Shown in pieces: positions 37,059 through 64,000 of a DNA stretch of 64,000 nt. The translations under genes were made by a program, and so were the position numbers. This DNA is from Candidatus Obscuribacteraceae bacterium (GTDB lineage Bacteria > Cyanobacteriota > Vampirovibrionia > Obscuribacterales > Obscuribacteraceae). Each line of letters begins with the position of its first letter. The stretch's first letter is position 1. The stretch spans positions 224,001-288,000 of the forward strand of contig JBGAHS010000009.1 of the NCBI GenBank assembly GCA_044226015.1, written 5' to 3'. The notes beneath the pieces are model-generated. The model ran no database searches. It had not been told where the DNA came from and saw nothing but the letters and a program-made list of their open reading frames with translations.

Positions 37059-39203
37059 CTACTTGTTTAGAAGTGATTGACGTCGTTTGACTTCTGATTC
37101 GACTTCTTCCGGGCTAATGTTGTTGACTTGCATTGGACCTGCGCAAAGTTCTCGCCATTGTGCACCGGCAAGAGCCTGTCTCACAATTACTTCGAAAACC
37201 TGTTGTCTTACTCCCATGCCATAGCTGCCTGACTGAGCGCCATTGGCGAACTGTGGTGTTGTCGGTGGTGCCATAGCAGGTTGTGGTCTTGCCGGTTGAG
37301 GAGCTGGAGCAGGTGTTGGTGCAGGCATGTTCTGGTGCCCGAATGAAGGCTGCGCAGGAGGCTGGAACTGTGGTGCCTGCGCTTGGAATCCTTGTTGGAA
37401 TCCCCCGGAGTTGAACCCGTCGCCAAATTCATTGCTCGTTAATGGTGAGTCAAATCCCGAACCAGGGTCACTTGCAAATACTCCCGGTTTTACTCCCGGA
37501 TTTGGTGCAGGAGTTGCTTCGAACAAGCCAGGTCTGGCGCCAGCCGCTACTTGCTGAGAGTCGAAAAATCCCTGGTTGTTTGCCTGTGCCGGCTCGTGAT
37601 GCTGAGGCGGCGCTGGTGCTTGTTGAGTGTGCAGATCGCGAAGAGAGAGCATCTCTTTTTGCAAATCTCGAACCATTTCTTCGGTGTTAGAGCGCAGCTC
37701 TTCCATTTGATTGCGAAGCATGTTCAGTTCGGCGTCTTTCTCGATCAGATCCATGTCTTTGCTTTCAAGAGCAGCTCTGAATTCTTCTTCTCTTGAATTG
37801 ATAAGATCTGCTGCCTCTGAATAGCGATTGTTGAGATCTTCCATTCGCTGATTGAGTTGTTCTTGAGCACTCTGCAATTCAGAGTCTTTCTGGCTCAGTA
37901 ACTGAGACAATTCGTTTTCACGTTCGTCCATGCGGCGTTGCATTTCTCGATTAGCTCTTTCAAGACTTTCGAGCTGAGCGCGCACCGCCTCATCTGTGAT
38001 TCCGCCCCCGGTGAACTCCGACAATGTTGCACCATAAGAAGTTCGTGGTGGGGCTTCTGCAGCTTGTACTGCTTCATATGCCGCACGGAAGAGGTCTCCA
38101 GAAATGCGTTGTTGACCTAATAACTCAACTAATCTGTGCAGCAGTTCTGCAGGTGGATCTGATGGGTACACTGCCATGTACGCGCACTTGAAGGTCCACG
38201 GGTCGATGAGCCCAGCGGACAGTTGGTCGGCAAGGCTTGTCACAAGCTGATCGGGAGATAGTTTCTCATTCTCTTGGGCTTCTTTGCCTTCCAGAGCCAG
38301 AACGAGCGAATCTAGCGCTGGAACGAGTTCGCCAATTGCTTTCATTGGCTCAAGTGCTGCTGTAAGAGACTCTGTAAGACTGTTCAAGTTCAAGCCGATT
38401 TCCATCAGCGTTTGATTTTGCAAAGTCTGAGACAGTCCTCGCAACACACCGGTTTGCTCTCCTGCCAGATTTTGTAGTGCGGCCAGGTTAGTTGCGCATA
38501 TGTTTAATGACTGATCAATGCTTTCGACTAGTTCAGCAGTTTTTTCGGAAACCACAGGAAGTGACTCATTCTGGCTTCTAGAGCTAGTCGCCGGAGTCGG
38601 AGCTGTTGTTTCGAAGATAGATGATGCTTGTGCTGAACTTTTCTTGGATTTCTTGTTTGAAATCGGAGCAGGAGCCGGTTCAGGTTCTGGTTCTAGTTGT
38701 GGCTCTGGAGCGGATGTTTCATCAATCTCTTCGGCTTGACTGCCCTCCAGCGCTGCAACTGCTTCATCAATGCTTTCAGCAGTGATCGGAACTCCATAAA
38801 CATTTACTGGTTCCGTATTTTGTCCATAATCGAATGAAGTTGCATCATAGTTTGCTGCGACCTGGGCCATCGCCTCAAGGTCGTAGGGGTCGCTCTGCTG
38901 ACCATACTGCTCGGTAAAATTAGGATCTTGTTGTTGTTGATAGGTTTGAGCGTTTTGCGGATCTTGTTGTCCGTAATTTTGTCCGTACTGGCTCTGTGAA
39001 TATGGGTCATTCTGCGGGTCACCATACTCGTCAGGAGGTGGAGCCGCGAAAGGGTCTGGGTAGGACGTGTTTCGTCCGCCGAGAGCACCCCTTAACTTAG
39101 CTCGTCGTGCTTGTAGGGATGATGCAGCATCCCCAGAACTATTTCCAGAACCGTTATCCACAGCTTCTGTAGCTTCCTTTTTTTTCTTGTCCGTCGTTCC
39201 CAC
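37059..39203 (-). CDS. Hypothetical coiled-coil protein with Q/P-rich disordered regions
   Basis: GAGGTAGG RBS and GTG start; long heptad region LESLERANREMQRR...LQKEMLSL; compact helical C-terminal domain. Confidence 0.85.
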   Translation of the reverse strand: MGTTDKKKKEATEAVDNGSGNSSGDAASSLQARRAKLRGALGGRNTSYPDPFAAPPPDEYGDPQNDPYSQSQYGQNYGQQDPQNAQTYQQQQDPNFTEQYGQQSDPYDLEAMAQVAANYDATSFDYGQNTEPVNVYGVPITAESIDEAVAALEGSQAEEIDETSAPEPQLEPEPEPAPAPISNKKSKKSSAQASSIFETTAPTPATSSRSQNESLPVVSEKTAELVESIDQSLNICATNLAALQNLAGEQTGVLRGLSQTLQNQTLMEIGLNLNSLTESLTAALEPMKAIGELVPALDSLVLALEGKEAQENEKLSPDQLVTSLADQLSAGLIDPWTFKCAYMAVYPSDPPAELLHRLVELLGQQRISGDLFRAAYEAVQAAEAPPRTSYGATLSEFTGGGITDEAVRAQLESLERANREMQRRMDERENELSQLLSQKDSELQSAQEQLNQRMEDLNNRYSEAADLINSREEEFRAALESKDMDLIEKDAELNMLRNQMEELRSNTEEMVRDLQKEMLSLRDLHTQQAPAPPQHHEPAQANNQGFFDSQQVAAGARPGLFEATPAPNPGVKPGVFASDPGSGFDSPLTSNEFGDGFNSGGFQQGFQAQAPQFQPPAQPSFGHQNMPAPTPAPAPQPARPQPAMAPPTTPQFANGAQSGSYGMGVRQQVFEVIVRQALAGAQWRELCAGPMQVNNISPEEVESEVKRRQSLLNK

Positions 39204-39452
39204 TCACCTACCTCGGAGGTCCAGCTGCAAATAACTTCCTATCAGTAGATCTGTTCCACTTTGGACCGGAAATAACACATCTTCTGAAGCTGTAGCGTCT
39301 GATATTTGCGGGCTTTTTAGCTGTTTAAGCTTTCCTCTTCTGGTCTGTGTTTCTTGCCTTCTAACCTTCCTGTCAAGCTCCCCCCAAAATCAGGCGGACC
39401 TCCTGATACTAGTATAGCCGAAAAATACCGTCCGGGAATAGAATCCCGGCGC

Positions 39453-39481
39453 TTGACAAGCTCCTTCTGCAAATGTACCAT
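39453..39481 (+). promoter_or_regulatory. Sigma70-type promoter of the ATPase cluster
   Basis: TTGACA-17 bp-TACCAT. Confidence 0.6.
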
Positions 39482-39645
39482 GCTTTGTGTCTGAAATACA
39501 ACTTAAATTCAGGCTTTTACCAGGAAGGGGCTAATTTGAATTTGGCTCCAGGGACAAAAATATTGGCAGCGTTTTGTCCTCGTGAAATTTGCCGAAAAGC
39601 GTTATTATCAAAGAGGAGACTCTCCGCTAGCCTTCATTCAGGTAC

Positions 39646-42600
39646 ATGAGTTTGGAACTTTTAATTTGTCAAACCTGCGGAATTATCATTCGCGGCCGGA
39701 GCAAGACTTGCACAGGCTGCGGCGCAGTTATGTCAAAACACTCGCCGACTGTTGTGAACAATGCATTGATCGGAGCTACTGCACTTGCCGTACCTCTGCA
39801 GAATGATCCACTCGTTCTTGAGCGAACCGTCAACCATGTGATTTATGGACGAAACATGGAAGCTGACTCGAACGGAAATGGCAACGGAAACGGCAGTGGC
39901 AACGGGCATGATGGAAATGGTGCCTTCCTTTATAGCGAATCTGATTTGGGCAAGGTCGTGTTTCCTGCTAGTGAGGACGGACCTGCTTTTCAGCCGGATG
40001 AAGAGTCAACTCAACTTGAGTCTGAACCAGAACCAGAGCCCATTCCGAACGAAGCGCCACAGTGGGAGCTTACGAGCACTGGCACGCGTTTGCCGATGTT
40101 AGGAGCTGCAGTAGGCACTCCCATGGCTGCTGGTGCAGCTCACGCCCTGGCTAGTTTCAATGCTCAATCGGCCCAGTCCGCTGAGATGGCAGCCGCTGCA
40201 GCGCCGCCAGTATCAACTCCCGCCGTAGCCGAGGCATCATCTGTCGCAGCTTATGCTCCTCCGGCGAGCCCAGAATACGCTGCTCCACCAACCGCAGACG
40301 ATCCTGATGATTTCTTTTCTGGTCCAGCAGCCGCTGCTGCCTCTGGTAATGGTGCTGGTGTTCCGTCCACCGGTCAGGCTGATTCGTTTGATGCCGCCCC
40401 GCCAGGAAGATCAGCGCCTGATCCTCATACACGTGCGCCCGAACCGGAGCAACGTGAGGCCGCTCCTGTATCACATACAAACAATGCAGCTCCCGTTCAG
40501 TCGGAACCTACCCATTCAGCTCCTTCCCAAACTGCTGGTCCTATCAGCGAACCGATTCACTCCCCTCCTGTAGCGACACCTTCTACTGCTCAGTCATTTT
40601 TGAGTGCTCCGCCGCCAGGTACGTTCGCTCCTACATCAGAATCTGCCTCAGCACAGACCGACACCGCTGTGTCGACACCAGGCTTGATGGCAAACTTTTC
40701 GACTCCGTCGTCATCGCAGAATGTGAAACCGACATCGGCGCATGCTTCTTCACGTCCTGGCATGATGGACTTTTTCTCTGCAACCTCAGATTCACCTGCA
40801 GCTGGCGGAACAACCGGGACCAATGAGGCGCAAGCAAGCTCTCCACAAACGGATAGTTTGTCACCTAGTTTTATGTCTGGGGCTCAGGCGAGCATCATAC
40901 AGAATGCAATTAACGCTGCAGCAAATTTGTCGACTTCAACCAAGACAGATGTAGAGCTTCGTGAAGCTGAGCCAGAGCCAGAACCATTGAAAGCCAAGAA
41001 AAAGAGTGTTGGCAAAAAGAGCTTGCGACCTAAGCCAGTTGAGGAAGCAGAAGATGAAGAGGATTTCGCTCCGAAGTCGCTCGACAAATTTAAGAAGAGC
41101 GGACGTTCTTCTTTGACCAAGATAGACAAGGACAAAACTTCCAAAGACAAAACAAAGTCTAAGCCTGCTCCAAGCAGCAAAAAGAAATCAGGTTCGAAAT
41201 CAGCTGAAACCGAGAATTTTACTGTCGGCAATTTTAGCATTCCGATGAAAACCGCTAAAGTAGCTGGTTTGATGATTGTTTTTGCTTTTCCTGTAATGGT
41301 TTTGATCGCGAATGTGACAAGTATTATTGGTGGACTTGCCGGTGGTAATAAAGACGGCAGTCTTCCAGGTATGGCAGCACCAGCTCCATCTAGCGGACTT
41401 AATGGTGATTGGGAAATTGCTTTCATGAATCCCAGTGGTTCTGTAGGAACCGGGGTTATGACACTCAATCAGAATGGAAACAGCATTGATGGGTATGGTG
41501 CTGATAAAGGACAGTTTCAAATTAGAGGCACCGTAGATGGTGACAAAGTTCAATTCAACAAACAATATGTGCAGAATGGACAGATAGTAGGAAAGCCTAT
41601 TCTCTACGCTGGAAAAATCGATTACATGATTGATCAACTGCCACAAGGGCAGAAGTATTTTGTTCACATCTCGGGTATTTGGCAGCTGACTAAACGAGAA
41701 GGGTACAGCTGGCGTGCACAAATCAAACAGTTTCAAGGCAAGTGGGAAGGTGGTCTGACCAGAAGAGGCACTGGGACGGGCACGATTGCAGCTCATTCCG
41801 GGCCTCAGCAAGGTCCGCAAGTGTCGAGTCCTAAAAACCCGCAAGCAGCGCATGGATTCTTCTTGCAAGTTGCTCTGGGTATCATCGGAATTGGTATAGG
41901 GCTTGCCTTAGTTTCGCTGAAATTCTTTGGACCCTCTGGACTGCTGAACATCTGGGCTAAAAAGGAATACATTCCATCGCAGTTCAAAGCTCAGCATTTC
42001 AAAATGGTCGCAGAAATGGGCAAACCTCTGCGTCCAGGTGGTGTACCTCTCGGAACTCGCAGCGACTGGGGCATCCATCAGTGGTGGCGTCCTCGAAAGC
42101 TGAATATGACGCCTGAGTTGAGAGAGTCAAATCCTCATACTCTAATTCTTGGTGCTGGTGCAAAAGGCAAAAGTCGTCTGATGGCCAGCATGATTGCAAA
42201 TGATATTGAAGGCGCAGAACGTGCTGTCGTTGTTGTCGACTCTGATGGAGCGCTTATCGACCTTATGATGAACTGGATTGCAGCGCATCCTAAGGGCAAG
42301 CAAATGGCAAAACGCGTTATTGTCATTGACCCTACATATGATGGCGAAACCATTGGCTATAATCCACTGGAGTTTCCTGAAGATGGCGATTTGCAGAACG
42401 CTGCATCATCTATTGTGTTTGGATTTAAAGCAATCTATACGGAGCCTCCCGGTTCACAGAGCCAATGGAACCAGCAAACGGCAAACATTCTGCGTAACTC
42501 TGCTGTTCTGCTTATGGCTAATGGAAAGACTCTCACAGACTTACCAGTTCTTCTCTCCGATAATGATTTCCGCGATATTTTGCTGGAAAAAGTTGAGAAG

Positions 42601-43479
42601 ATTAAACACGAAAAGAGCGAGTACACCACGCTTATCGATGCCTGGTCAAACTATAAGAGACTGGCAAGAACAGACCAATGGATCAACTGGATTGAACCAA
42701 TTCTCAACCGAGTTCAACCTATGTTGGGCGACCCGCGTATTCGTCCTATTTTGACTCGAGCGAAAAGCGACCTAATTCTCTCTGACATCATCAAAGAGAA
42801 GAAAGTCTTGTTTGTGAAAATTCCGCAAGGACAACTCGATCAGAACGGTAATCTGCTGGGCAGTTTGATGGTCACTGGTATTAAGCAGGCCGCTCTGTCT
42901 TTGTCTGTTAAAGGTAAAGAGAAGAATCGCGCTTGTGCGTTATATTTGGATGAGTTTGATACCTTCATTGAGAAAGAAACATTTGATGCCATAACTTCTG
43001 AGACTCGAAAGTTCCAACTGGGTTTTGTTGGCGCAAGCAAGACATTGCAAACATTGCCTGAAGATTATCGAAACCAGCTCGTTATCAACGTTGGCATGAT
43101 GGCTATCTTTGCACTTGCTAAGAAAGATGGAGATATGCTCGGACCTCAAATGTTCCGTGTGGATGGTAGAAAAGTAAAACATCAGACCATTCAAAACGTT
43201 TTCAACAAAGTCAACTCATCTCCTCAATTTGAACTTATTTCGGACGAAGAAAAATTGAACATCGACCGCGTTGTGGGGCAAGAGGAGCGTACCTACTTCT
43301 GTTACCGAGTTGGTACAGTTGCAGGCGTGTTTAACATGCTAGCGCCCGAATTTAAGGATGTTCCAGAGAAGGACATCAACCAGGACCTCCTGGATGAAAT
43401 GTATGAAAATCGTTTGAAACATGAAGACGACGATTATGAAGAAGACGAAGATGAGGAAGAGGAAGACGACGAAGATTAG
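39646..43479 (+). CDS. VirD4/TraD-like (type IV coupling protein-like) membrane ATPase with N-terminal zinc ribbon
   Basis: CQTC...CTGC, long P/A/S-rich linker, two TM helices, Walker A GAGAKGKS, VVVVDSDG, IDP...GYNPL, Walker B LYLDEF, TRK arginine finger, acidic tail. Confidence 0.82.
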   Translation: MSLELLICQTCGIIIRGRSKTCTGCGAVMSKHSPTVVNNALIGATALAVPLQNDPLVLERTVNHVIYGRNMEADSNGNGNGNGSGNGHDGNGAFLYSESDLGKVVFPASEDGPAFQPDEESTQLESEPEPEPIPNEAPQWELTSTGTRLPMLGAAVGTPMAAGAAHALASFNAQSAQSAEMAAAAAPPVSTPAVAEASSVAAYAPPASPEYAAPPTADDPDDFFSGPAAAAASGNGAGVPSTGQADSFDAAPPGRSAPDPHTRAPEPEQREAAPVSHTNNAAPVQSEPTHSAPSQTAGPISEPIHSPPVATPSTAQSFLSAPPPGTFAPTSESASAQTDTAVSTPGLMANFSTPSSSQNVKPTSAHASSRPGMMDFFSATSDSPAAGGTTGTNEAQASSPQTDSLSPSFMSGAQASIIQNAINAAANLSTSTKTDVELREAEPEPEPLKAKKKSVGKKSLRPKPVEEAEDEEDFAPKSLDKFKKSGRSSLTKIDKDKTSKDKTKSKPAPSSKKKSGSKSAETENFTVGNFSIPMKTAKVAGLMIVFAFPVMVLIANVTSIIGGLAGGNKDGSLPGMAAPAPSSGLNGDWEIAFMNPSGSVGTGVMTLNQNGNSIDGYGADKGQFQIRGTVDGDKVQFNKQYVQNGQIVGKPILYAGKIDYMIDQLPQGQKYFVHISGIWQLTKREGYSWRAQIKQFQGKWEGGLTRRGTGTGTIAAHSGPQQGPQVSSPKNPQAAHGFFLQVALGIIGIGIGLALVSLKFFGPSGLLNIWAKKEYIPSQFKAQHFKMVAEMGKPLRPGGVPLGTRSDWGIHQWWRPRKLNMTPELRESNPHTLILGAGAKGKSRLMASMIANDIEGAERAVVVVDSDGALIDLMMNWIAAHPKGKQMAKRVIVIDPTYDGETIGYNPLEFPEDGDLQNAASSIVFGFKAIYTEPPGSQSQWNQQTANILRNSAVLLMANGKTLTDLPVLLSDNDFRDILLEKVEKIKHEKSEYTTLIDAWSNYKRLARTDQWINWIEPILNRVQPMLGDPRIRPILTRAKSDLILSDIIKEKKVLFVKIPQGQLDQNGNLLGSLMVTGIKQAALSLSVKGKEKNRACALYLDEFDTFIEKETFDAITSETRKFQLGFVGASKTLQTLPEDYRNQLVINVGMMAIFALAKKDGDMLGPQMFRVDGRKVKHQTIQNVFNKVNSSPQFELISDEEKLNIDRVVGQEERTYFCYRVGTVAGVFNMLAPEFKDVPEKDINQDLLDEMYENRLKHEDDDYEEDEDEEEEDDED

Positions 43480-43493
43480 AACGTAAGTTTTTC

Positions 43494-43522
43494 TTGACAA
43501 GGTCGAAGGGCCGGCTTATATT
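43494..43522 (+). promoter_or_regulatory. Sigma70-type promoter
   Basis: TTGACA-17 bp-TATATT, giving a ~200-nt leader before ATG 43730. Confidence 0.7.
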
Positions 43523-43542
43523 ATTCGTAATTTAGTAGTAAA

Positions 43543-43717: not shown

Positions 43718-43729
43718 AAGGTTTAATTC

Positions 43730-46700
43730 ATGAACTATTTCGTTTGCCCTTCTTGCGGAGGGCTGCTTCGCAGCGCCGCGAGCAATTGTCAGAATTGCAG
43801 AACTTTTGTAACTAAACACTCGAGTACTGGCGTGGCTCATTTAAGTGCTTCTCTGCAACCACATGCTGTGGCATTGAAGGACCCATCGCTGAAAGCCGAA
43901 ACGATGATTTTGCAGCTTCAGGCTGCTGGAGTAAATGGCAGCTCAAATTTACCCAGTCAATTGCATCAGGAGTGTTCAGCTCTGCCTGCACAAGATTACG
44001 TTGATGCTCTTGCAAAGCAATCTTCTGTTATTACAAATGACTCGAATCATAATTTTTCACCAGAAGAGTCCTTACCTTGTGCTGAGTTTCCGTGGAATCC
44101 CACGCCATCTCCCGAAGCCATCGAAAGCGATTCAGCTCAAATCGATGTTCCTTCTGTTCTTCTTGGTGGTGCTGCGGGATTCGCTGCTGGTGTCCTTGTA
44201 AGTAATGTTTTTAACGCAAAGGCAGAAGTGTCTGAGAATCTTTCAAAAGTTAGAGGGAGCGTTGTCGATAAGGAAATTGTGCCTTGCGCGAATGCTGCGA
44301 CTATTGATTCGATTTACGAGAATTCGCCTGCCGCGCCTTCTCTGATTCAATCTGAAGAAATCGCTGTTTCTGATAGTGGAAATGACCTGCGCCAATTATT
44401 GTCACAGGTTGAGAGCAATCGCAGCGAGCCAGCCATTGGGCGAGACTTTTTTGCTGACGCCAATCTGAACCAGTCTTTTCTGAGGGTTGAAGAAGGTTCA
44501 TTCCAAAAGCAAAACGCTTTTTCAACCTATTTTGAATCACCTGAGCTGGCGGATGGTGCACGTGCTGAGCAATCAGTCTCAGTGGGACCCAGCGTCGAAC
44601 TTAGCGATGAGCAACGCAATCGATTGATTCAACGCCTTGTTGATGCAAATTCCAATGGCGCGGGCTCTGCTTTGCCGGAACTGTTCGAAAACTCAAATGT
44701 AGCGCCGACTCAGCCTAAACGCAAGCGATCGATTAGACGTCGACACGAGCAGCTGAGTGAAGAGAAAAGTAGCAGTGACTCGAATGTGCTTAGTTTGCTG
44801 AAAGGGCTCGCAAAGCCGTTGCTGCTATCCTTAAGTGCTCTCATTCTTTGCTCTGTTCTTGCAGTATTTGCGGTTTTGTTTGAATCTAAGAGCGAACATC
44901 TAACTGCCGTTGGCTTTATGGAAGGTCGCTATCTGACCTCGTTTCAGGATGGTTTCGGACAGGCAAACAGTGGGCAGATGGACCTGCACAAGTTTGGTGA
45001 AATGATTAAAGGAACAGGGAAGGATTTGCTTCCCGTCCCGACAGCTATCGGACAACGCTACCGCAGCTTCGAAATAAGTGGAGCCGTTTCGTCCAACGGT
45101 ATCACTCTGGTGAAGCGCTATCTACCTGAGGTTAATAAGGCTAAGAGTCCGCCGATTGTATTTGAAGGAAACTTCACTGATGTCAGTCAGAAGTTCATTT
45201 CTGGAACTTGGCACGTTCAGCGCAACGGAAAGAGTGCAGCAGGAAATTGGAATGCTCGCTTCGTCGAGACTCCGAAACTCTCAACTATGAAGTGGGGCGC
45301 CTGGCGAAACAAGCAAAATCCTATGAATTCGGCAGCTCCCACGGAGCCTGTCAAAGAGGATCTCTTTAGTAAGTATGTTTGGAATGATAATGAACCATTG
45401 CCTTCGCGTTTTGGCAAGCTGCTTTGTCTTTGTGTCCTGCTAGGTATTGCTCTTGTTCATCTATCTGCCAGATTTTTCGGGCTGCATGGTCTCCTTAATA
45501 CATGGGAAAGAGAGCGCTATGTCCCGGTTTCGCTTCGCCCCCAACAGCGAAAGATAATGAAGGAATTAGGCAGGGGAAAGGCGTCCGGTTCGCTTTTCAT
45601 GGGCACTCGAATGGATTGGCATCTGGGTGAGATATTGCTTCCACGCAAGTTGTATCTGACCAACGAGAGACGAAGCCGCAACCCGCATTTTCTTGCCATT
45701 GGAAATAGTGCGAAAGGCAAGACCAGATTGCTTGCAAATATGGCGATGCAAGACATCAGGAGTGACGACAGAGCTGTAGTCATCGTTGATTCCGAAGGCT
45801 CTCTTTGTGATCTCGTTTTGAGGACCATGGCAGCAAGTGCTGACGCCAAAGAACTTCTAAGCAGAGTTCATGTAATCGAGCCCTGCCGAACAGAATGTGT
45901 TTTGGGGTTTAACCCATTTCTTTGCGCTGATTCTGAGAATTTGCTTTCTCTAGCCAACAGTATTGTGCTCGGCTTCAAAGCCGTTTATACAGAGACTCAA
46001 AATCAACAAAATCAGTGGTCTCAGCAGACCGCGAATATTCTTCGCAATTCGGTGCTCTTGCTGATTCTAAACGGAGAGAACCTTGATGCCTTGCCGAAGC
46101 TGCTTTCAGATAACGATTTTAGAGATGTCTTACTTGAAAGTGTCGAACTGCATCACGCTGCTGAATGGAAAACTCTGATCGATGCATGGTCGAATTACAA
46201 GAAATTAGCACGTACTGATCAATGGCTAAATTGGATAGAGCCAATACTTAACCGTGTGCAACCGCTCTTGTCAGACCGTCGCATCAGCCGATTATTGAAT
46301 GCTTCAGATAACAGTGTTGACCTGGAGCAGGTATTGAAGGAGAAGCAGGTGTTGCTTCTGCGTGTTCCAGAAGGACAACTGGAAAAAGGAGGAAGTCTTT
46401 TAGGAAGTCTTATTATCACAGGTTTGAAACAAGCTGCATTGGCGCGGTTCGAGCGAGGGCGAGACGAGGAGTCACCCTGCGCTCTGTACGTTGATGAGCT
46501 AAACAATTTTATGGATGCTGAATCTTTCGATTCGTTTTGCGCCGACTCGAGAAAATTGAAAGTCGGCTTGCATGCCTCTCTCAAAACATTGCATGACTTG
46601 CCTGAGGATTTTAGAACTAAGATTCAAGTTGATTTTGGAAGCATTGCTGTATTCGCAATATCCAAGAAGGATGCTGATGTCCTCGGACCTGGAATATTCA

Positions 46701-46969
46701 AGGTAGACGGTCGCAGTATCACTAAGATACGACCGGCCGATATCATGAATCCATTTAATTCCGCACCGAACATGCGCATGGCTTCGGACGAGGAAAAGAT
46801 GAATACAAATAGATTTGTCGGTCAAGACGAAAAGACATTTTTCTTCCATATCATGGGCACAGAAGCTGGAATCTTCAGAATGACTGCACCAGAATTCAAA
46901 GACATCCCAAGAGGAGACATCAATTGGGATTTGCTGGAGTCAATTTATGATGAAGATTCAGGAGATTGA
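43730..46969 (+). CDS. VirD4/TraD-like membrane ATPase, paralog of 39646-43479
   Basis: CPSC...CQNC, two TM helices, Walker A GNSAKGKT, Walker B LYVDEL; near-identical blocks QQTANILRNS and WSNYKKLARTDQWLNWIEPILNRVQP. Confidence 0.82.
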   Translation: MNYFVCPSCGGLLRSAASNCQNCRTFVTKHSSTGVAHLSASLQPHAVALKDPSLKAETMILQLQAAGVNGSSNLPSQLHQECSALPAQDYVDALAKQSSVITNDSNHNFSPEESLPCAEFPWNPTPSPEAIESDSAQIDVPSVLLGGAAGFAAGVLVSNVFNAKAEVSENLSKVRGSVVDKEIVPCANAATIDSIYENSPAAPSLIQSEEIAVSDSGNDLRQLLSQVESNRSEPAIGRDFFADANLNQSFLRVEEGSFQKQNAFSTYFESPELADGARAEQSVSVGPSVELSDEQRNRLIQRLVDANSNGAGSALPELFENSNVAPTQPKRKRSIRRRHEQLSEEKSSSDSNVLSLLKGLAKPLLLSLSALILCSVLAVFAVLFESKSEHLTAVGFMEGRYLTSFQDGFGQANSGQMDLHKFGEMIKGTGKDLLPVPTAIGQRYRSFEISGAVSSNGITLVKRYLPEVNKAKSPPIVFEGNFTDVSQKFISGTWHVQRNGKSAAGNWNARFVETPKLSTMKWGAWRNKQNPMNSAAPTEPVKEDLFSKYVWNDNEPLPSRFGKLLCLCVLLGIALVHLSARFFGLHGLLNTWERERYVPVSLRPQQRKIMKELGRGKASGSLFMGTRMDWHLGEILLPRKLYLTNERRSRNPHFLAIGNSAKGKTRLLANMAMQDIRSDDRAVVIVDSEGSLCDLVLRTMAASADAKELLSRVHVIEPCRTECVLGFNPFLCADSENLLSLANSIVLGFKAVYTETQNQQNQWSQQTANILRNSVLLLILNGENLDALPKLLSDNDFRDVLLESVELHHAAEWKTLIDAWSNYKKLARTDQWLNWIEPILNRVQPLLSDRRISRLLNASDNSVDLEQVLKEKQVLLLRVPEGQLEKGGSLLGSLIITGLKQAALARFERGRDEESPCALYVDELNNFMDAESFDSFCADSRKLKVGLHASLKTLHDLPEDFRTKIQVDFGSIAVFAISKKDADVLGPGIFKVDGRSITKIRPADIMNPFNSAPNMRMASDEEKMNTNRFVGQDEKTFFFHIMGTEAGIFRMTAPEFKDIPRGDINWDLLESIYDEDSGD

Positions 46970-47226: not shown

Positions 47227-50200
47227 ATGCAAAGTGGTGGACCAGGTCCCAGGAACATCTGGGAGGAAAAGATAGGCGACCTCCGTCGTTATGATCTTGA
47301 TCAATTAGAGCAAGATCCGTTGCGACCGGAGGACATTGAAAGCTGGCCAATTCCAGGTTTGGCATTTGTGAGAGTTGATGGCATTTTGCGTTCTTGGGAC
47401 ATTGAACAAGAAAAGCAACAGAGAAACCAGCAGCCCCAGCAACAAAACGATCCCAATCAACTGCCAAAGCGCATGTACTTGATGGAAGATGCTCTAACTG
47501 GCTTGAACAGCCAGAAGGCATACGTTGCATATTTAGTTCTGGGGAACAGAACCGGCGTTAAATACTACATGGGTATGTCACTGCAAACAGCTCCTGATGG
47601 CTTGGAAGAAAGCGACCTCGCTGAGATTTGCTATAACATTCAAAAATCAATTCTTCATAGCGTATACAACGGCGTAGATATTCACAAGGATATTTACTCA
47701 AGTGATGATTTGAAGCAGCTGATAGCGCCGATGGCTGCTAACGTTGGCATAGTTACTGGTGTTCCCTCCTTAAAAAGCACCGGTGGTGACACTCTAGAGT
47801 CTGAGCAGATTGAGCGTATTGCTAGCGGTTTGCAAGGTCTCGACTTTGGTATGTTGATACTTTGTGCTCCGGTGCCATCAAAGATGGTGTCAGAAGAAGA
47901 GTTTATTATTCTTGACCAGGTGCAGCGTGCTCAAGAAAATGAAGATGCCGAAAAGAAACGGCGTATCAAATACTACCTGGAGTTGCAGGATGCTTACTTG
48001 AAGCACGTGCAGTTGGGGCAAGCCATTGGGCACTGGCAAGTGGGTGTTTATTTCTTTGCTCCTAAAGCTGACGTATTTGTTCGCTTAATGTCATTGATCA
48101 AGGCTACTTACACAGATGAAGGTTCTCGCCCGACTCCATTGCGCACTCACGTGTTCAAGGGGCTGAAAAAGCATCTTCTCGATTTTGGATTGTTGCGTAA
48201 TCCGAGAGCAGATAGCAACGGTCATAAGCTCTTTAACTTCCGCTTTCTCTCACCCCTGAACTCACGTATGCTCTCATCGTTTGTTCATCTGCCTAAGCGA
48301 GAGATGGCTGGGTTTAAGGTGCGACGATCAGCAGAGTTCAGCCTTGCAGCACCAGATGTGAAAAATCCAGAAAGGACAATTGCTGTAGGAAATATTCTCG
48401 ACAAGAATATAGATACCGGTAACTTGTATCACGTGGATGTCGACGCCCTTCAAAAACACACCATCATCTGTGGAGTAACCGGGGGTGGTAAGACTAATAC
48501 ATCATTCTATTTGTTGAATCAGTTATGGCGCTACAAGATACCTTTCATGGTAATTGAGCCTGCTAAGTCTGAGTACAGGTACATGCTTCTCACTTCGGAC
48601 AACTTCAAGGGAATTGGGCAAGCATTCTCACTTGGGGATGAGACTGTTTCGCCCTTCCGATTGAATCCATTTGAAATCATGAAAGGGGTAAAGGTACAAA
48701 CCCATCTCGATGCGTTGAAGTCAGTATTCAACGCAAGTTTTGAAATGTATTCTCCAATGCCTCAGGTTCTGGAAAAAGCGTTGAACCAGATTTATGGTGT
48801 ACGTGGGTGGGACCTCGTTCAGAACAAAAACAGGCGACTTCCACCAGGGATGAGCGTGGGCGACCCTGATTGTCCGCCTGAAATCTATCCCACTATGAAA
48901 GACCTTTTCGAAATTATTGACCCCGTTGTTGAATCTTTCGGATATTCAGAAAGAATCGGTCCTGACGTACAGGCTGCTCTGAAAGCCCGTATTGGTTCTT
49001 TGCTCATCGGTGGTAAAGGACAGATGCTCAATACGCGCAGGTCTATTCCTCCAGAGATTCTCTTCCAGCGTCCAACTGTTGTAGAACTAAAGATGGTGTC
49101 AGAAGACTCTGAAAAATCCTTCTTAATGGGAATGCTTCTTGTGTTTCTCTACGAGTTTAGAGAAGCTCGAGGACCGCACGATGAGCTACAACACGTTATG
49201 TTGGTAGAAGAGGCTCACCGACTCTTGAAAAACGTTCCGACGGGGCAAAGTTCTGAAAGCGCAAACCCGGCAGGTAAAGCGGTTGAATTCTTTACGAACA
49301 TGCTTGCTGAAATTCGTTCTTACGGTCAGGGATTCATCATCGCGGACCAAATTCCAAACAAACTCGCTCCTGAAGCTTTGAAAAATACGAACTTGAAGAT
49401 CATGCACCGTATTGTGGCGGTCGATGACCGTGACTCTATGGGTGGTGCAATGAACCTTGATGATGTTCAGAAACGCCACGTTACAGCACTTGGTCAAGGG
49501 CGTGCAGTAGTTTACGCTGAGAAAATGGAAACCCCATTCCACCTTGCTATTATGTTCGACAAAACTGCAGCTGTACCACCTCCAGAAACGCCAGAGGAAG
49601 GCGACCAAATCGTGCGTGACGCGATGGCCGGTTTGAACATTGTTCAGACATTCGACAGGCATATGGGATGCAAATTCTGCTTGCATCGCTGTGATTCTGC
49701 CATCCTCGATACTGCAGTGATGGTTGCTGACGACACATTGTTCAGGCAAGTCTATAACCGATATTTGCTTTCTACACTGAAGGACTTGACACAACTTGTT
49801 CACTTCAGGGCGCAAATTATTCACGAAATTCAGCGTGTAATCGGCGGACGAGCTCGTTCAGGTAACCTTACGGGGATCACATGGTGCGCTCTGACTCAGG
49901 CAACTGAGAGATATTATGAGAGAAAGGGCGAAGAAAATTATTGGTATTATGACCAGGTAAAAGAGCAGCATTTACGGTGGCTGAACTTGTTGCGTCCAGC
50001 CTTCCAGCCAAGCGAAGTAAACCGCAGGCTTGATATAAGTGTATTGCGCGAATGGAGAGATGATTTCGTCGAACTGCATAAGCGCGACCAGGGACCTCAT
50101 CCTACATGCGGACCTTGCACAGCGAAGTGCTTGTACCGATTTGAAGTTTCGGAAATCGTGCGCGATCCGAAAATCAAGTTTGACTTCAACTCGTCAATCA

Positions 50201-50430
50201 ACCGTAAAGACACTGCTGCTTCCGACTCTGCTGCCTGGTTCTGCCGTTTGTTGACAGAACGAATGATTGGACAGCCAGACATAGATTTGTCGTACTGTCT
50301 TGCAGTACATTTGATCAAAGATCAGCAGCTATCCACCGATGCGCAGCTTGTACTATTGCACAAGGTACGAACAGCTCTGGAAAACTTCCAGAATGAGGCT
50401 GAGGAAGGTGGTGGCGAGGGTGGTGGCTAG
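47227..50430 (+). CDS. HerA/DUF87-like FtsK-HerA superfamily ATPase with Cys-rich C-terminal domain
   Basis: HTIICGVTGGGKT, VIEPAKSEY, LNPFE, Walker B MLVEEAHRLL, LAEIRSYG and ADQIP; C-terminal HMGCKFCLHRC and PTCGPCTAKCLYR. Confidence 0.88.
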   Translation: MQSGGPGPRNIWEEKIGDLRRYDLDQLEQDPLRPEDIESWPIPGLAFVRVDGILRSWDIEQEKQQRNQQPQQQNDPNQLPKRMYLMEDALTGLNSQKAYVAYLVLGNRTGVKYYMGMSLQTAPDGLEESDLAEICYNIQKSILHSVYNGVDIHKDIYSSDDLKQLIAPMAANVGIVTGVPSLKSTGGDTLESEQIERIASGLQGLDFGMLILCAPVPSKMVSEEEFIILDQVQRAQENEDAEKKRRIKYYLELQDAYLKHVQLGQAIGHWQVGVYFFAPKADVFVRLMSLIKATYTDEGSRPTPLRTHVFKGLKKHLLDFGLLRNPRADSNGHKLFNFRFLSPLNSRMLSSFVHLPKREMAGFKVRRSAEFSLAAPDVKNPERTIAVGNILDKNIDTGNLYHVDVDALQKHTIICGVTGGGKTNTSFYLLNQLWRYKIPFMVIEPAKSEYRYMLLTSDNFKGIGQAFSLGDETVSPFRLNPFEIMKGVKVQTHLDALKSVFNASFEMYSPMPQVLEKALNQIYGVRGWDLVQNKNRRLPPGMSVGDPDCPPEIYPTMKDLFEIIDPVVESFGYSERIGPDVQAALKARIGSLLIGGKGQMLNTRRSIPPEILFQRPTVVELKMVSEDSEKSFLMGMLLVFLYEFREARGPHDELQHVMLVEEAHRLLKNVPTGQSSESANPAGKAVEFFTNMLAEIRSYGQGFIIADQIPNKLAPEALKNTNLKIMHRIVAVDDRDSMGGAMNLDDVQKRHVTALGQGRAVVYAEKMETPFHLAIMFDKTAAVPPPETPEEGDQIVRDAMAGLNIVQTFDRHMGCKFCLHRCDSAILDTAVMVADDTLFRQVYNRYLLSTLKDLTQLVHFRAQIIHEIQRVIGGRARSGNLTGITWCALTQATERYYERKGEENYWYYDQVKEQHLRWLNLLRPAFQPSEVNRRLDISVLREWRDDFVELHKRDQGPHPTCGPCTAKCLYRFEVSEIVRDPKIKFDFNSSINRKDTAASDSAAWFCRLLTERMIGQPDIDLSYCLAVHLIKDQQLSTDAQLVLLHKVRTALENFQNEAEEGGGEGGG

Positions 50431-50445: not shown

Positions 50446-51804
50446 CTATTTTGTTCCTTCAGGGGAGAGCATTTTGTGAATTGCTCTGTCGGTGTCGGTC
50501 CAAGTCCTTGCTTGCACTTTCTCTACAAAACCTTCTCCTAGTTCTTTCTTGACGAACTGTTCCCATTTTGAAGGCGCTTCTGACCAAAACTGAAATGGTT
50601 TGTCAGGCTGGAATTCTTGCCATCGCCCTTTTTCTTGAGCTACTAGATTTCTAAAATTAACGGAATGAGCCAACTCTCTCAATGCTGCTTGCCCTTCAGC
50701 TGTGTTCGTTAGACTATTTAAATGAGTCTCCATACCTGCTGAAGTCACTTCTGTAAACCGTCCCATACGTAGAGGCATATCCTGAAGTCTGCAGGGACGA
50801 GTAAGTGCAGGCATATCAGACGTATGAGGTAAAAGTTCTGACAATGCTGCGTTCCTTGTAGCAGATTCAGGTTCTGAGTAAAGAATATATCTTATCGGAG
50901 GGGTAAGTTTAGCAGCTTCTCGAGCAGCCTGTAAGGCAGGATGCAAATGAGCGCCCAGATCTCCCTGCGCAAGATCCACTACATTTGCCTCCGCAGCACT
51001 CGCGGCTGTTTGTTCTGCGTTTCTTGACACAGCCTTCAAGTCGAAATTTCCTGTTAAGGCAAGGTGATCCGAAAGGGCAATTGATCTTGCTGAAAGGTCA
51101 GGATGCAGATGCGCTCCAAGGTCTCCATCTACAACTGTTTGTTCGATAGGCGCGGTTCTTGATGCTATCGGATCAATGACTCTAAGCTTGCTCATTCTTG
51201 CTCCTCCAGGTGTCCTTCTTTTCAGCCATTCACTGTGTTGAAACAATTCCGCCGTGTCAATGTGCGACTCATGTCCTCCAAAAAGCATATTGCCGGGGTC
51301 TTCTGGTGGGGGAAAGTCGAAGTCATTACCTTTTCCAAGATGATAATCACGAATCCGAGCAGATTCATGGTCCAATCCCCCAGGACCAAAATTGAAGTCG
51401 CCACTAATTACATGTCTCGGTACTGTAGATTCTTGAGCAAGTATGTCTGACATCTGGCCAGCCTCAGCATGCCCGCCGTAAACGATTTCGGCAGGCTCTC
51501 CGTTGGCTCCTGGTTTAAAGTATGCATTTGCAAAATCACGATTTGTCCTGGGGGTGTTTTTCAAAAAATCACCAAATTCGGCTTTCAAGTTAGCAGCAAT
51601 ATCTTTTTCGCCCTGGCGCATACCGACACCCGCTAGCTTGCTCGCGTTATACAGTCCCCCTACAATGGCTGCTCCTGCCACCACAGTTTCAACAGGATGG
51701 TTTTTCATGAAATCAACAGCCTCTGAGAGAAGGTTTTGATGGGCTGCTTCTTTGCCTGAGTCATGTGATAGCAGTTCTGATCTTGTTAGGTGTGAGTTAT
51801 CCAT
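50446..51804 (-). CDS. Hypothetical protein with N-terminal hydrophobic segment and endonuclease/exonuclease/phosphatase (EEP)-like motifs
   Basis: VISGDFN, HID and LSDHLAL in EEP order; duplicated GDLGAHLHP. Confidence 0.65.
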   Translation of the reverse strand: MDNSHLTRSELLSHDSGKEAAHQNLLSEAVDFMKNHPVETVVAGAAIVGGLYNASKLAGVGMRQGEKDIAANLKAEFGDFLKNTPRTNRDFANAYFKPGANGEPAEIVYGGHAEAGQMSDILAQESTVPRHVISGDFNFGPGGLDHESARIRDYHLGKGNDFDFPPPEDPGNMLFGGHESHIDTAELFQHSEWLKRRTPGGARMSKLRVIDPIASRTAPIEQTVVDGDLGAHLHPDLSARSIALSDHLALTGNFDLKAVSRNAEQTAASAAEANVVDLAQGDLGAHLHPALQAAREAAKLTPPIRYILYSEPESATRNAALSELLPHTSDMPALTRPCRLQDMPLRMGRFTEVTSAGMETHLNSLTNTAEGQAALRELAHSVNFRNLVAQEKGRWQEFQPDKPFQFWSEAPSKWEQFVKKELGEGFVEKVQARTWTDTDRAIHKMLSPEGTK

Positions 51805-52050: not shown

Positions 52051-52074
52051 GATCTATGTTTGTTCTTTCTTTTC

Positions 52075-55000: not shown

Positions 55001-56340
55001 TTCAACGTGGTGCTCGAACCGTCTGGATTGGCTGCTGTGCCGGTGTTAGAGAGGTCTGGTAGATTAGAAGTCACGGAATTCCATGTATCAGCTACTGTCG
55101 GTCCGACTGCTGCACCAATGGTTGCACCAGTGGTGACACCAACCCCTGTAACAAGTCCTAGTCCGCCACCCACTCCCGCTCCTATCGTAGTGGCATCCCA
55201 TCCGGAATCTGAATTGTTGCTTCCTGTGTTGTCGCTTCCACTTCCCGTAGGAGGTTGACTGTGGTCGGTATTGATTGGACCGTTGTTAGCAATTGTGCCA
55301 TCTGGAAGGGTGGTGACAAAGCCCGCATCAACATCATGCTGAATGGCGTCATTAGTTATTCCTGGAGAACTTGGTGGTTCAGAGCCACTACTGATTGTTG
55401 TGCTTGGTTCGCCGCTGCCTCTGGTGCCCTGAATAGGTTGATCGTCAAAGCCCATGCCTGGGTCATTTATGCTTGTTCCAGTTCCACCGTTGCCCATTGG
55501 TGTTCCGACAGGGCTAGATGTGCTGTCACCAGATTGAGTGTCAACGTTCTGTCCATTTTGATAGTCAGCTTGGCGCTGTGCTATAGCATCCAGCTGAGAG
55601 TCGGTCATCTGGTTTTGTCTTCCCTGCTGATTTTGTTGTGATACAAAATCTGCAGCGTCCGTACCTCTGGAGTTTGAAGTTGCAGCATAGTTTGGATCAG
55701 ATGTTACTGCATTGATTGAGTCAGTGCTTGAGTTATCGGCGGTTGATGCTGTTGCTTGCGCATCAGCTTTGTCAGCCTGGTAATCGGCCTGTCTTTGGGC
55801 GATAGCGTCAAGCTGGGCGTCGGTCATGTTTGCCGCCCGCGCATCCTGATTTTGTTGAGATACAAAATTTGCCGCATCTGCTCCTCGTGAATCAGATGTG
55901 TTGGCAAGAGTGTAATCTTGGGTTTGCATAGAGCCATCTGCTGCAATACTTTGAGTATTTGCTACTGCAGGGTCGCTCTGTATGTCATTCGCCATCAAGC
56001 TATTTACGTTCTGACTTGCGCTTAGTTGATAAACGCCGTCAGAGTTTGGACTGTATGTAGCGCTGTCGAATGTGCCATCAGTTGGCGACGACGTGCCAGT
56101 GCTGCCCGTGTTTGTATAAATCGGAGTGTCAGGGTAGCTTGAGGAATATCCTGAACCGGAGAGATCTGTACCATTATATGTATTGTTTGAGCTTGAATCG
56201 TAGCTGCCAGAGGATCCACTCGAACTCGGAGGCGTGTAGGTGTCCGTTGGATAGTTCGAGGTGCTGGTGCTACCACTTACGGTTCCGCTGTCATAACTTC
56301 CACCACTGGAAGATCCCCCGATGCCAATTGTTATGTCCAC
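52075..56340 (-). CDS. C-terminal portion of a giant repetitive protein: two LysM-like domains plus conserved C-terminal domain (frame continues upstream to ~56680)
   Basis: KYVVLPGDTLESIA and YTCRLGDTLRSIA LysMs; frame stays open upstream of GTG 56340 and reads ...ASDATTAPATGTT repeats. Confidence 0.85.
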   Translation of the reverse strand: MDITIGIGGSSSGGSYDSGTVSGSTSTSNYPTDTYTPPSSSGSSGSYDSSSNNTYNGTDLSGSGYSSSYPDTPIYTNTGSTGTSSPTDGTFDSATYSPNSDGVYQLSASQNVNSLMANDIQSDPAVANTQSIAADGSMQTQDYTLANTSDSRGADAANFVSQQNQDARAANMTDAQLDAIAQRQADYQADKADAQATASTADNSSTDSINAVTSDPNYAATSNSRGTDAADFVSQQNQQGRQNQMTDSQLDAIAQRQADYQNGQNVDTQSGDSTSSPVGTPMGNGGTGTSINDPGMGFDDQPIQGTRGSGEPSTTISSGSEPPSSPGITNDAIQHDVDAGFVTTLPDGTIANNGPINTDHSQPPTGSGSDNTGSNNSDSGWDATTIGAGVGGGLGLVTGVGVTTGATIGAAVGPTVADTWNSVTSNLPDLSNTGTAANPDGSSTTLNNDGSTTTSNPDGTVVTQTPDGTTISQDGATTSTFEPNGTVTTTNSSSDSSSSGSIPDGGSSTTVYPDGTEKTYFSDGSELTVKPDGTQTYVDKEGTTTVADSDGNVLSQTDRNGYDIVDGKSTDPSASYDANPSASNDNTNTGNQTGGLDFNPNDNVSTYNPNDGILTPAEQLAMDIAMLEALNGLWSGTGAIGWNVEDKKERVDVIEQSKEKKEGDTAINAEQAQKALSELLPEMLQPLAEQLGLQLKDGELPFSEETLLSMIQKQLAGEHAEGSAETAEKNVLAELLQNGIAQTISSIEQVFTAPNGDVFELIVVRDAFGNIISRHFVDAGGNIISEGLVDQALHFVRSLQGTEDAVHWDANSLSEIFSSGSMAETTAFLDGNFDIMNVIQQANESFIPFNDNNAPDPSSLVSMVFGQDPNNPMNDPNQPGNWINGATEGGETIFDQFIHTLMAEDRSQDSGLESELQASLDPLNTAWVDPVFDQNIMANLEGAEHHGPLDFLHQQKDKEFAEHQRREEEERERALRAKAELEAKEYAAAMMAAIRQAAQKELADKQMMQEQLLQREMRRKYVVLPGDTLESIAQKMFYNRGLATLIYEINRSLIPSVMKDGKRKLQLKPRTIIFLPTQSEIKRFNNRMFGKKPAFEYDESTTNTNNSGETKKPKFSLLNILNVGARETGLNGRDNNKDNVVDLSERRRANIQNVLGKLHEASQIDEYHDDRIVYTCRLGDTLRSIALRHPALKDVTLWKLIAELNGLSTEMDDFGHPVVVLSRNTKLRLPLTQEIEDYKNRGKKRKPTLPQIVPSGPVSSVPSEGVQSGPASGSVPSTPITDDANAESSSAEEMVRPDIEEYEPEVDNLLRVMRVQIQNEEKDEHQYTVLAERCRISRKGEAKGGSVPFTISLEIKKNNTWVAVVTYEINADQSWRYEATTSGSRKGKQINLPVRLAKQMAENDITKNWRQYAESNNVAIS

Positions 56341-64000: not shown

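Follow-up and report, generated by a model that had tools for sequence, protein, structure and literature searches.

What do the tandem ATPase genes of this locus move, and with which partners? The locus lies in a 64,000-nucleotide stretch of DNA (hereafter the window) from a 92% complete genome of the Obscuribacterales, a sparsely studied order of non-photosynthetic cyanobacteria that has no known cultured member and is a diderm lineage. The first-pass annotation described two paralogous VirD4/TraD-like ATPases and a HerA/DUF87-like ATPase in the same orientation, which the ORFs and the matches to TrwB_AAD_bind and DUF87 confirm, and read them as a three-ATPase array without conjugation genes. 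The relevant features are listed below; ORF starts are mechanical calls.

23567..27166, minus strand: second LysM-DUF7718 member, 1199 aa, no signal, candidate passenger
36632..36952, plus strand: protein of 106 aa with one TM, located between selA and CC, syntenic family-wide
37059..39203, minus strand: CC, 714 aa, soluble, with a coiled-coil region, divergent from A1
39646..43479, plus strand: A1, 1277 aa, coupling-protein homologue (ORF, Pfam, motifs, predicted fold)
43730..46969, plus strand: A2, 1079 aa, diverged tandem paralogue of A1 that shares its architecture
47227..50430, plus strand: A3, 1067 aa, soluble ATPase of VirB4/HerA fold, predicted motor
50446..51804, minus strand: 452-aa gene, convergent, in a 27-member N-terminal-leader family of the source genome
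52075..64000 in the window, start at 70004 outside it, minus strand: LysM-DUF7718 giant, candidate passenger

The ORF positions agree with the annotated divergent coiled-coil gene and convergent effector-like gene, and the locus does follow core genes (tuf, an rlmB-like gene and selA). CC is separated from A1 by 442 bp and stands head-to-head with it in both Obscuribacterales families; a Pfam search placed it in no family, and the ESM Atlas gave no match above 0.81 for CC or the LysM end. Among the 26 window ORFs scanned there was no relaxase, VirB, NurA or Sir2 family, as had been stated, and no mobile-element family. The effector-like 452-aa gene had been counted as part of the system; its homologue was found in 0 of 56 downstream regions, and it is no conserved member of the locus.

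The repetitive gene of more than 3,900 aa is convergent as described, but it comprises two ORFs in the present assembly (52075-56340 and 56331-70004), the start lying 6 kb past the window. The frame shifts within a 39-nt tandem repeat near 56700, one unit of which is 38 nt, and giants of the same genus have a single open frame (5788 and 6362 aa); the giant is therefore probably a single gene, encoding about 6,000 aa, with an assembly error. No read contig was found across its repeat. Its product is acidic and repetitive, ends in LysM-LysM-DUF7718 and has neither a signal peptide nor a TM segment. The source genome contains 65 ORFs longer than 2,000 aa, 35 of them without a hydrophobic N-terminus. 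An iterative HMM of the N-terminal leader recovered the 27-member family noted above with 0 internal decoys, the LysM giants being excluded. The N-terminal motif LxxEA[YF] was considered as a genome-wide export signal and set aside, its positional enrichment not being clear.

A1 and A2 (42% over 694 aa) match TrwB_AAD_bind and VirD4-like models, A1 exceeding the cut-off of PF10412. A1 begins with a zinc ribbon and a long disordered linker (~500 aa); its TM helices (539-557 and 738-756) enclose an 8-stranded avidin-like barrel, predicted to be extracytoplasmic, and are followed by a TrwB/DotL-like P-loop domain. In fold comparisons, made for both A1 and A3 with VIA-align, the A1 model superposed on TrwB with Z 25.5 (rmsd 3.7, 388 aligned) and on the Legionella coupling complex with Z 24.5 (rmsd 3.6, 358 aligned); a sequence search of the PDB gave no useful match. 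A1 thus has the TM anchor and the TrwB-fold NTPase with an all-α domain expected of a coupling protein. The Walker A motif, Walker B Glu, Arg finger and sensor Gln have established roles in catalysis, and this set is not intact in the A1 family. GK[ST] occurs in all 59 orthologue rows covering that site and the Walker B Glu in 48/60 orthologues, whereas the Arg finger is kept in 13/60 as against 45/45 outside relatives, and the sensor position is Lys in 60/60 as against Gln in 45/45. The A1 of the window itself retains the Arg and Glu, with the sensor Gln replaced by Lys. Judged by these motifs, A1 looks catalytically degenerate. The A2 slot is absent, ATPase-less or filled by a full copy among relatives, so that A2 is a patchy duplicate.

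A3, which matches DUF87, consists of an N-terminal α/β domain, the ATPase domain and a C-terminal helical domain bearing Cys residues, and its Walker A and B motifs, Arg finger and Gln are intact in 116-119 of 120 sequences. Its fold resembles the ATPase domain of VirB4 (Z 33.4, rmsd 3.0, 354 aligned), on a level with DndH-C (Z 33.1), and then HerA (Z 27.9). The likeness to VirB4 is one of fold only: TIGR00929 scored 13 bits against a cut-off of 643, and no VirB3-like neighbour was present at the A3 loci examined. A3 also scored against the CedD model (E 2.6e-16) and HerA models far below the NCBIfam cut-offs, against the PADLOC HerA and Mad8 models weakly and partially (best E 1.4e-14; HerA/Mad8-type matches span ~170 of 560-690 model positions), and against HerA weakly in a PDB sequence search. 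No HerA-system partner (NurA, Sir2 or DUF4297) adjoins A3, which sets it apart from the known HerA systems.

Across the order, A1 was found in 24/27 and A3 in 25/27 other Obscuribacterales genomes, and neither A1 nor full-length A3 in 13 genomes outside. With the 7 second-family loci left out, an A1-family gene lies immediately 5′ of A3 at all 57 family loci with room, and a convergent LysM-module gene is present at 49/56. Within the family A3 is near-universal, single-copy, fixed in position and 75-92% identical. Two ATPase-bearing A1 copies occur at 11/57 loci, and the annotated array of three ATPases, A1 among them looking degenerate, gives way to a conserved Obscuribacterales unit of two ATPase genes, A1 and A3. 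The proposed co-occurrence of the locus with the LysM-DUF7718 family held, the module being present in 27/27 order genomes and 0/13 others; members of this family lack signal peptides. A1, A3, the LysM module, VirD4 and VirB4a have one distribution in common; many lineage-specific genes would show such an order-wide profile, and related genomes do not count as independent.

The selA/rlmB/tuf neighbourhood is kept across relatives, the gene trees are congruent and the GC content of the locus is similar to that of the adjacent core genes. Synteny and vertical descent, suggested as a check, thus bear out a resident, lineage-wide and non-mobile locus. Its supposed lineage specificity does not extend to the A3 family, which is cross-phylum (2,703 representatives at E≤1e-30). 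The A3 proteins of the order came out as monophyletic with a support of just 0.69, and correlations of A1 and A3 distances with those of selA were weak (0.44-0.6, 11 loci). The second family has A1 and A3 at separate loci, with A3 in triplicate; the A3 copies flank giant genes there too, at another site.

The description "without conjugation genes" applies to the window and not to the genome, which carries VirB4 ATPase genes in two operons found across the order (best model E 2.9e-48 and 2.3e-37), one operon adding a VirD4 gene and a Replic_Relax gene; VirB4 is therefore represented at the genome level. VirB4a was found in 32/32 other order genomes and 0/118 outside, and VirD4 in 24/27 order genomes and 0/13 outside. 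The VirD4 of the first operon has intact motifs, and the Replic_Relax gene is present at 7/10 VirB4-VirD4 operon loci; a coupling protein was found in the second operon at 0/10 loci of 20 kb. Candidates for VirB3, VirB6 (nine paralogues), VirB8 and the VirB2 pilin fit in position and topology, with no Pfam or NCBIfam match, and the VirB8a profile matched a gene from a T4SS locus on a plasmid (E 4e-4). Genome searches for VirB8, PrgI, TrbL, TrbL_3 and CagX gave no match, two of them having been run without a positive control, and VirB9 had none in the 92% complete genome. Four sub-cut-off TrbI matches were rejected as a VirB10/TrbI core, being scattered signal-peptide proteins. Missing T4SS partners elsewhere in the genome, which the first-pass annotation had named as evidence against its reading, are thus partly supplied by the VirB4 operons, although the operons do not form a mobile system of the canonical kind: they are single-copy and order-wide with fixed chromosomal neighbours. 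The A1/A3 locus adjoins neither operon among the loci fetched.

Distant relatives of A3 were compared after 10 of 80 metagenome loci, which were Obscuribacterales-like, had been dropped. A TM segment was encoded by the 5′ gene of 24/29 full-length relatives (background 167/508), and the 3′ gene lacked an N-terminal hydrophobic stretch in 32/34 cases and had a polar leader in 24/34 (background 137/508). The layout at these loci is a membrane gene, the A3 relative and a co-oriented, signal-less passenger-like gene. An upstream-partner HMM matched 15/51 upstream genes, a count that is partly circular because 11 seeds were drawn from the matched set. The domain scan covered 37 of the 58 distant downstream genes: four encode OmpA-type wall-binding domains, four a deaminase, WHH nuclease, NS_2 nuclease or Tlde1 (the WHH nuclease gene being followed by an SMI1/KNR4 immunity gene), five unrelated families (GrpE, CHAT, GNAT, DZR, DUF3920), and 24 have no Pfam family. 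An acidic, low-complexity, signal-less protein is encoded 3′ of the A3 relative at 3/4 actinobacterial plasmid loci. Some plasmid relatives lie near relaxase or replication-relaxation genes, and some of those without the C-terminal domain follow a WYL regulator gene or have coiled-coil, Hsp70, vWA or kinase genes around them. As regards the putative C-terminal export signal, the distant passengers have the polar leader in common, not the DUF7718 end. No homologue of A1, VirB4a, VirD4, CC or the LysM module was found across 70 distant loci, of which many are short, and none of the relatives' small OB-like membrane partner in the source genome. With no partner homologues in common, joining the Obscuribacterales locus to these contexts is an analogy; taken as such, they lend independent support to the export of signal-less proteins.

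We therefore read the locus, with a probability of about one half, as a fixed Obscuribacterales module in which A3 is likely the pump and A1 likely the anchor and substrate adaptor, exporting signal-less proteins such as the LysM giant. A1 and A3 probably feed a dispersed T4SS core. The A3 ring would thread unfolded passengers, and A1, binding nucleotide but hydrolysing it poorly, may stand in for the small membrane partner encoded 5′ of A3 relatives in other phyla. The dispersed VirB4/VirB6-like core could provide the passengers' way across the inner membrane, the best candidate being the VirB4 operon without its own coupling protein, and LysM might then tether them to peptidoglycan. A2 and the ATPase-less copies would be interchangeable adaptors. 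A wider and more doubtful proposal is that A3 represents an unrecognised cross-phylum secretion class, in which a ~1,000-aa motor and a zinc-ribbon/TM partner export signal-less polymorphic toxins and wall-binding proteins; the Obscuribacterales would have made it part of their core, with a pseudo-ATPase coupling protein and two domesticated T4SS cores, delivering dozens of giant and effector-like proteins as predators or symbionts.

Alternatively, A1 and A3 might be additional motors in a domesticated apparatus, conjugation-like or Ced-like, that exchanges or takes up DNA, the LysM giants being adhesins that happen to lie nearby. The operon combining VirB4, VirD4 and Replic_Relax, the CedD and HerA scores, the DNA translocases among the closest folds and the relaxase genes near some plasmid relatives point this way, and the equal closeness of A3 to the DNA-acting DndH and HerA counts against export. 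We consider DNA traffic the less likely reading, though a serious rival: that operon has an intact VirD4 of its own and lacks Replic_Relax at 3/10 loci, the degenerate A1 motifs speak against an active DNA pump, and the neighbours of distant A3 relatives are toxins and wall-binding proteins rather than DNA-processing genes. It is somewhat less probable still that A3 and a membrane partner form a self-sufficient, T7SS-like inner-membrane system to which the VirB4 operons contribute nothing. The minimal distant layout, with no T4SS homologues detected nearby, and the lack of linkage to the VirB4 operons are what such a system would look like; however, the locus has no multi-pass channel gene (A1 has two TMs), A1 is specifically a T4CP homologue, the distribution is the same as that of the VirB4 operons, and short distant loci would miss a channel encoded elsewhere.

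A HerA-type complex for defence or conflict inside the cell, in which CC senses and the effectors are cytoplasmic, would accommodate the PADLOC matches and the relatives beside WYL, coiled-coil, Hsp70, vWA and kinase genes. We regard it as improbable, given matches so partial and so far under the cut-offs, the missing Sir2, NurA and DUF4297 neighbours, and an A3 that, being near-universal, single-copy, fixed and highly identical, is unlike defence islands. Finally, the giants might leave by a type I route or stay inside, their adjacency reflecting inherited gene order, and A1/A3 might serve the envelope in another way, for instance in cell division. The LysM gene is convergent and not co-transcribed, whereas distant passengers are co-oriented, which also counts against export; selA and other neighbours are just as syntenic, and the genome has no strong match to canonical FtsK (best E 4.8e-7, to VirB4b). 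The other orders of the class likewise lack an FtsK match, yet they have no A3. Type I passengers without RTX repeats exist, and HlyD-like proteins, below the cut-off and unlinked to the giant, leave this route some probability. There are, however, 0 RTX nonapeptides in the giant, and the two best HlyD-like matches belong to small operons of efflux type that have no giant gene in the surrounding 5 kb. The sole source-genome homologue of a small gene that follows A3 elsewhere adjoins another LysM-module gene, and the second-family A3 copies flank giants at a different place. The chance of this last alternative is very small.

If the export reading is true, the Obscuribacterales would have a defined route of export, a hint that their way of life depends on contact, and the very large anonymous "DUF87" ATPase family would gain a role in the traffic of polymorphic toxins. 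The compact cassettes of culturable Actinobacteria make such a role of the A3 family directly testable. A coupling-protein clade that has kept its P-loop and lost its arginine finger is also naturally suited to telling the motor role from the adaptor role in T4SS coupling.

In the openly readable literature searched, the locus, an Obscuribacterales T4SS and a role of the A3 family in export were not described. Like the type IV coupling proteins TrwB, VirD4, DotL and Cag-beta, A1 and A2 have two TMs followed by a TrwB-fold P-loop domain with an all-α insert (Z 23-25.5). A1 differs from them in its N-terminal zinc ribbon, 500-aa disordered arm and avidin-like barrel between the TMs, in its degenerate Arg finger and sensor Gln, and in being paired with a soluble VirB4/HerA-fold ATPase and unlinked to VirB genes. 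Type VII secretion (EccC/EssC/YueA), where an FtsK/HerA motor sends out signal-less proteins and polymorphic toxins, resembles the proposed role of A3, and EccC-type ATPases include inactive domains (PMC3482391). By contrast, A1 and A3 have a single ATPase domain per chain and lower fold scores (Z 14-17), and no WXG or LXG domain was present in the window ORFs scanned, so that the locus does not qualify as a T7SS. A3 shares its superfamily fold with HerA (NurA-HerA, Sir2-HerA, DUF4297-HerA) and CedB/CedD (Z 21-28, weak model matches) but differs in its sub-cut-off scores, its extra N- and C-terminal domains, the absence of a nuclease or Sir2 partner and a core that is not patchy.

Among relatives by descent, Vampirovibrio chlorellavorus belongs to the same class as the Obscuribacterales, and its T4SS, T-type and partly plasmid-borne, has been proposed to deliver proteins to prey (PMC4451040). 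Outside the Obscuribacterales, 118 genomes of the class had no match to the VirB4a query at E≤1e-30. The vertically inherited chromosomal T4SS of Patescibacteria has a monoderm-type core of VirB4, VirB3, VirB6 and pilin without an outer-membrane complex, and many of its T4CP genes are far from virB4 (148 of 5,713 are near; PMC12102498). The Obscuribacterales differ from it in being diderm and in combining two VirB4 operons and nine VirB6-like paralogues with a linked VirD4 and Replic_Relax; they also have the A1/A3 satellite with its LysM giants.

The genome holding the window comprises 8.19 Mb in 13 contigs and falls, by the names of its homologues, within Obscuribacterales; every ORF of the ATPase locus named in the first-pass annotation was present in the sequence:

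37059-39203 (-), CC, 714-aa coiled-coil protein divergent from A1
39646-43479, A1, 1277-aa TrwB/VirD4-like ATPase
43730-46969, A2, 1079-aa paralogue of A1
47227-50430, A3, 1067-aa VirB4/HerA-fold ATPase
50446-51804 (-), 452-aa gene

A1 and A2 share 42% identity across 694 aa. A1 exceeded the Pfam cut-off for TrwB_AAD_bind and A3 that for DUF87; A2 matched only VirD4/TraD models, weakly. The repetitive gene of >3,900 aa was present and convergent on A3, as annotated, but forms two ORFs in the assembly (52075-56340 and 56331-70004), split at a 39-nt tandem repeat in which one unit is short. Because the gene is one uninterrupted frame in same-genus genomes (5788 and 6362 aa), the break is likely an assembly error; the read contigs gave no confirmation of this at the repeat. 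LysM and DUF7718 domains form the end of this giant, in which no signal peptide, TM helix or RTX repeat was found. Immediately upstream lies another giant, of 3621 aa, that ends in the same domains (G000:C3:294415-305280, locus L119 of this genome). The LysM-DUF7718 family has eight members in the genome, which encodes 65 ORFs of at least 2,000 aa, the largest of 14,391 aa.

Of 27 other genomes from the order, 24 carry A1 and 25 carry A3 (75-92% identical within the family); the three with no A1 match have a completeness of 58-79%. None of 13 genomes from the rest of the class had A1, and A3 gave just two weak, partial matches outside the order. In a sample of 300 genomes across the phylum, 6 oxygenic-type genomes held relatives at 37-40%. 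The recurrent order across genera was selA, a small TM gene, divergent CC, A1, an optional A1 copy, A3, a small gene and the convergent LysM giant. In A3-centred loci, excluding 7 from the second family of the order, an A1-family gene stood upstream of A3 in 57/57, a LysM gene converged on A3 in 49/56 and the small gene followed A3 in 45/56. The triple ATPase array proved not to be the conserved state, since two A1-family ORFs occurred in 21 loci and both bore an ATPase in only 11; nine A1-family ORFs, one a split gene, had the zinc ribbon and barrel without the ATPase. The 452-aa gene, taken earlier for a locus member, was present in 0/56. In the second family, CC and A1 remain at selA, and A3 occurs elsewhere in three copies beside giant genes. 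The A3 and A1 trees had 22 supported splits in common (of 37 and 34; shuffled maximum, 1) and 5 conflicts, and the A3 and CC trees 12 (of 18 and 14), showing that A1, A3 and CC are co-inherited. This co-inheritance and the fixed position beside core genes argue against a mobile element, in agreement with the earlier proposal of a resident locus.

The small soluble protein after A3 (L052:11188-11772 in one relative) has no known family and is a candidate chaperone; its homologue in this genome (G000:C1:47116-47745) adjoins a different LysM-module gene. The 452-aa gene and 2171-3481 belong to a family of 27 genes in this genome with a conserved N-terminal leader, a hydrophobic helix and variable C-termini, one of which is a PHB-esterase-like hydrolase; the architecture is effector-like.

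In the A3 model (pLDDT 89.5) an alpha/beta domain at the N terminus is followed by the ATPase core and then by a helical, Cys-bearing domain at the C terminus. VirB4 (Z 33.4, rmsd 3.0, 354 aligned) and DndH-C (33.1) tied as the nearest folds to the core and HerA came next (27.9); the A3 motifs were intact in 116-119 of 120 homologues. The terminal domains also occur as stand-alone copies (G000:C11:955668-956654 and C10:72395-72877).

The A1 model (residues 531-1258, pLDDT 86) showed a TM helix, an avidin-like beta-barrel (Z 11-12.5), a second TM helix and a P-loop domain. TrwB was its top match (Z 25.5, rmsd 3.7, 388 aligned), followed by DndH-C (24.6), a Legionella coupling complex (24.5), Cag-beta (22.9) and VirB4 (22.8). 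Walker A/B, arginine finger and sensor Gln motifs have catalytic roles. When the 60 closest A1 orthologues were compared with 45 outside relatives (28-32% identity), the orthologues kept GK[ST] and the Walker B Asp, with the Walker B Glu in 48/60 and the arginine finger in only 13/60; the sensor Gln was Lys in 60/60. From these motifs we infer that A1 would bind nucleotide and hydrolyze it poorly; alternatively, the Lys present in all 60 might have taken over a catalytic role. Two relatives fuse an A1-like ATPase domain to Ser/Thr kinases (L150:8698-11238 and L151:3510-6842), a fusion that would fit a binding role for this domain. The genome also has a full third A1-family copy (G000:C9:476739-481109), a copy that stops at the barrel and has no ATPase (G000:C10:411313-414660) and a 339-aa barrel protein (G000:C1:10082-11101).

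The A3 family is not lineage-specific as first supposed: among 1.84 billion representatives searched, 2,703 matched at E<=1e-30, and the best 150 were mostly near full length (30-45%). Four actinobacterial plasmid relatives had a small single-TM gene upstream (4/4) and acidic low-complexity proteins without signal peptides downstream (3/4). From 80 metagenome loci, 10 Obscuribacterales-like ones were excluded, leaving 70 distant loci, of which 40 had a full-length A3 and were used for neighbor counts. A TM was present in the upstream gene in 24/29 (background 167/508) and a zinc ribbon in 8/29 (42/508). A1 sits in the position of this upstream partner and is likewise built from zinc ribbon, linker and TM, but it lacks the partner's beta domain, of which the genome holds no homologue. 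The downstream gene lacked an N-terminal hydrophobic stretch in 32/34 and had a polar leader in 24/34 (137/508). A domain scan of 37 of 58 distant downstream genes found OmpA in 4, one each of Pput2613 deaminase, WHH nuclease, NS_2 nuclease and Tlde1/CHAP, 5 other families and 24 without a family; an SMI1/KNR4 gene follows the WHH nuclease gene. Domains that bind or cleave the cell wall must act outside the cytoplasm, and a nuclease paired with its immunity gene is the layout of polymorphic toxins; these neighbors are therefore the strongest hint at export. The distant passengers have no DUF7718-like end in common, and a C-terminal export signal in the DUF7718 family is possible. A3 relatives without the C-terminal domain often lie in other clusters, coiled-coil-rich or WYL-regulated, so the family may have more than one role.

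The locus had been described as lacking conjugation genes, but two T4SS-type operons lie on other contigs:

G000:C10:63035-88206 (L117, L118), operon A: pilin-like, VirB6-like, DUF2225, VirB3-like, VirB4a, VirB8-like, VirD4, Replic_Relax
G000:C1:182285-205260 (L115, L116), operon B: lipoprotein, two VirB6-like, VirB3-like, VirB4b, two single-TM genes

VirB4, VirD4 and Replic_Relax are named from family matches and VirB2/3/6/8 from position and topology only; VirB8a had one modest profile match, and genome searches found no VirB9. Both operons were conserved (10 loci compared for each), and no coupling protein was seen in the 10 operon B loci. VirB4 matched in 32/32 other genomes of the order and 0/118 others of the class, and VirD4 in 24/27 within the order and 0/13 outside. 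An FtsK-profile search gave no strong FtsK match in the genome; the second ATPase that it detected throughout the order turned out to be VirB4-like. In one relative, an open frame of 2958 aa has seven matches to the FtsK domain (G023:C16:82364-88792). VirB4b is split in this assembly and open in the relatives listed, nine VirB6-like paralogues are scattered through the genome, and the stand-alone A3 C-terminal domain on C10 lies just upstream of operon A here and was not seen in relatives' operon A loci.

With the folds, motifs, gene order, distribution and signal-less candidates as observed, we propose that A3 would act as a pump, anchored by A1, which would aid substrate choice. Passengers would be recognized without a Sec signal and cross a dispersed T4SS-type core, operon B being the natural client, and LysM would hold them on peptidoglycan. 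We put this full mechanism at about 0.5; protein export in either form, through such a core or by A3 with a membrane partner, is fairly probable. Stand-alone export, in favor of which no T4SS homologue was seen in the 70 distant loci, is quite unlikely. DNA traffic by A1 and A3 is unlikely, a defense system is improbable, and a coincidence of position is very improbable.

Literature searches found no description of the locus or of the A3 family in export. The available text of PMC3482391 names the T7SS as the FtsK/HerA-driven toxin route and does not include the A3 family, nor do the accessible portions of PMC7159879 and bioRxiv 10.1101/2023.11.21.568195 cover it. The components come from a known superfamily and follow known logic, and a distinct secretion class is a doubtful proposition. 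The two T4SS-type operons, order-wide and chromosomal, merit separate study: they resemble the chromosomal monoderm-type T4SS of Patescibacteria as far as presented in the available part of PMC12102498, and differ from the Vampirovibrio T4SS, which the available part of PMC4451040 assigns to the T-type.
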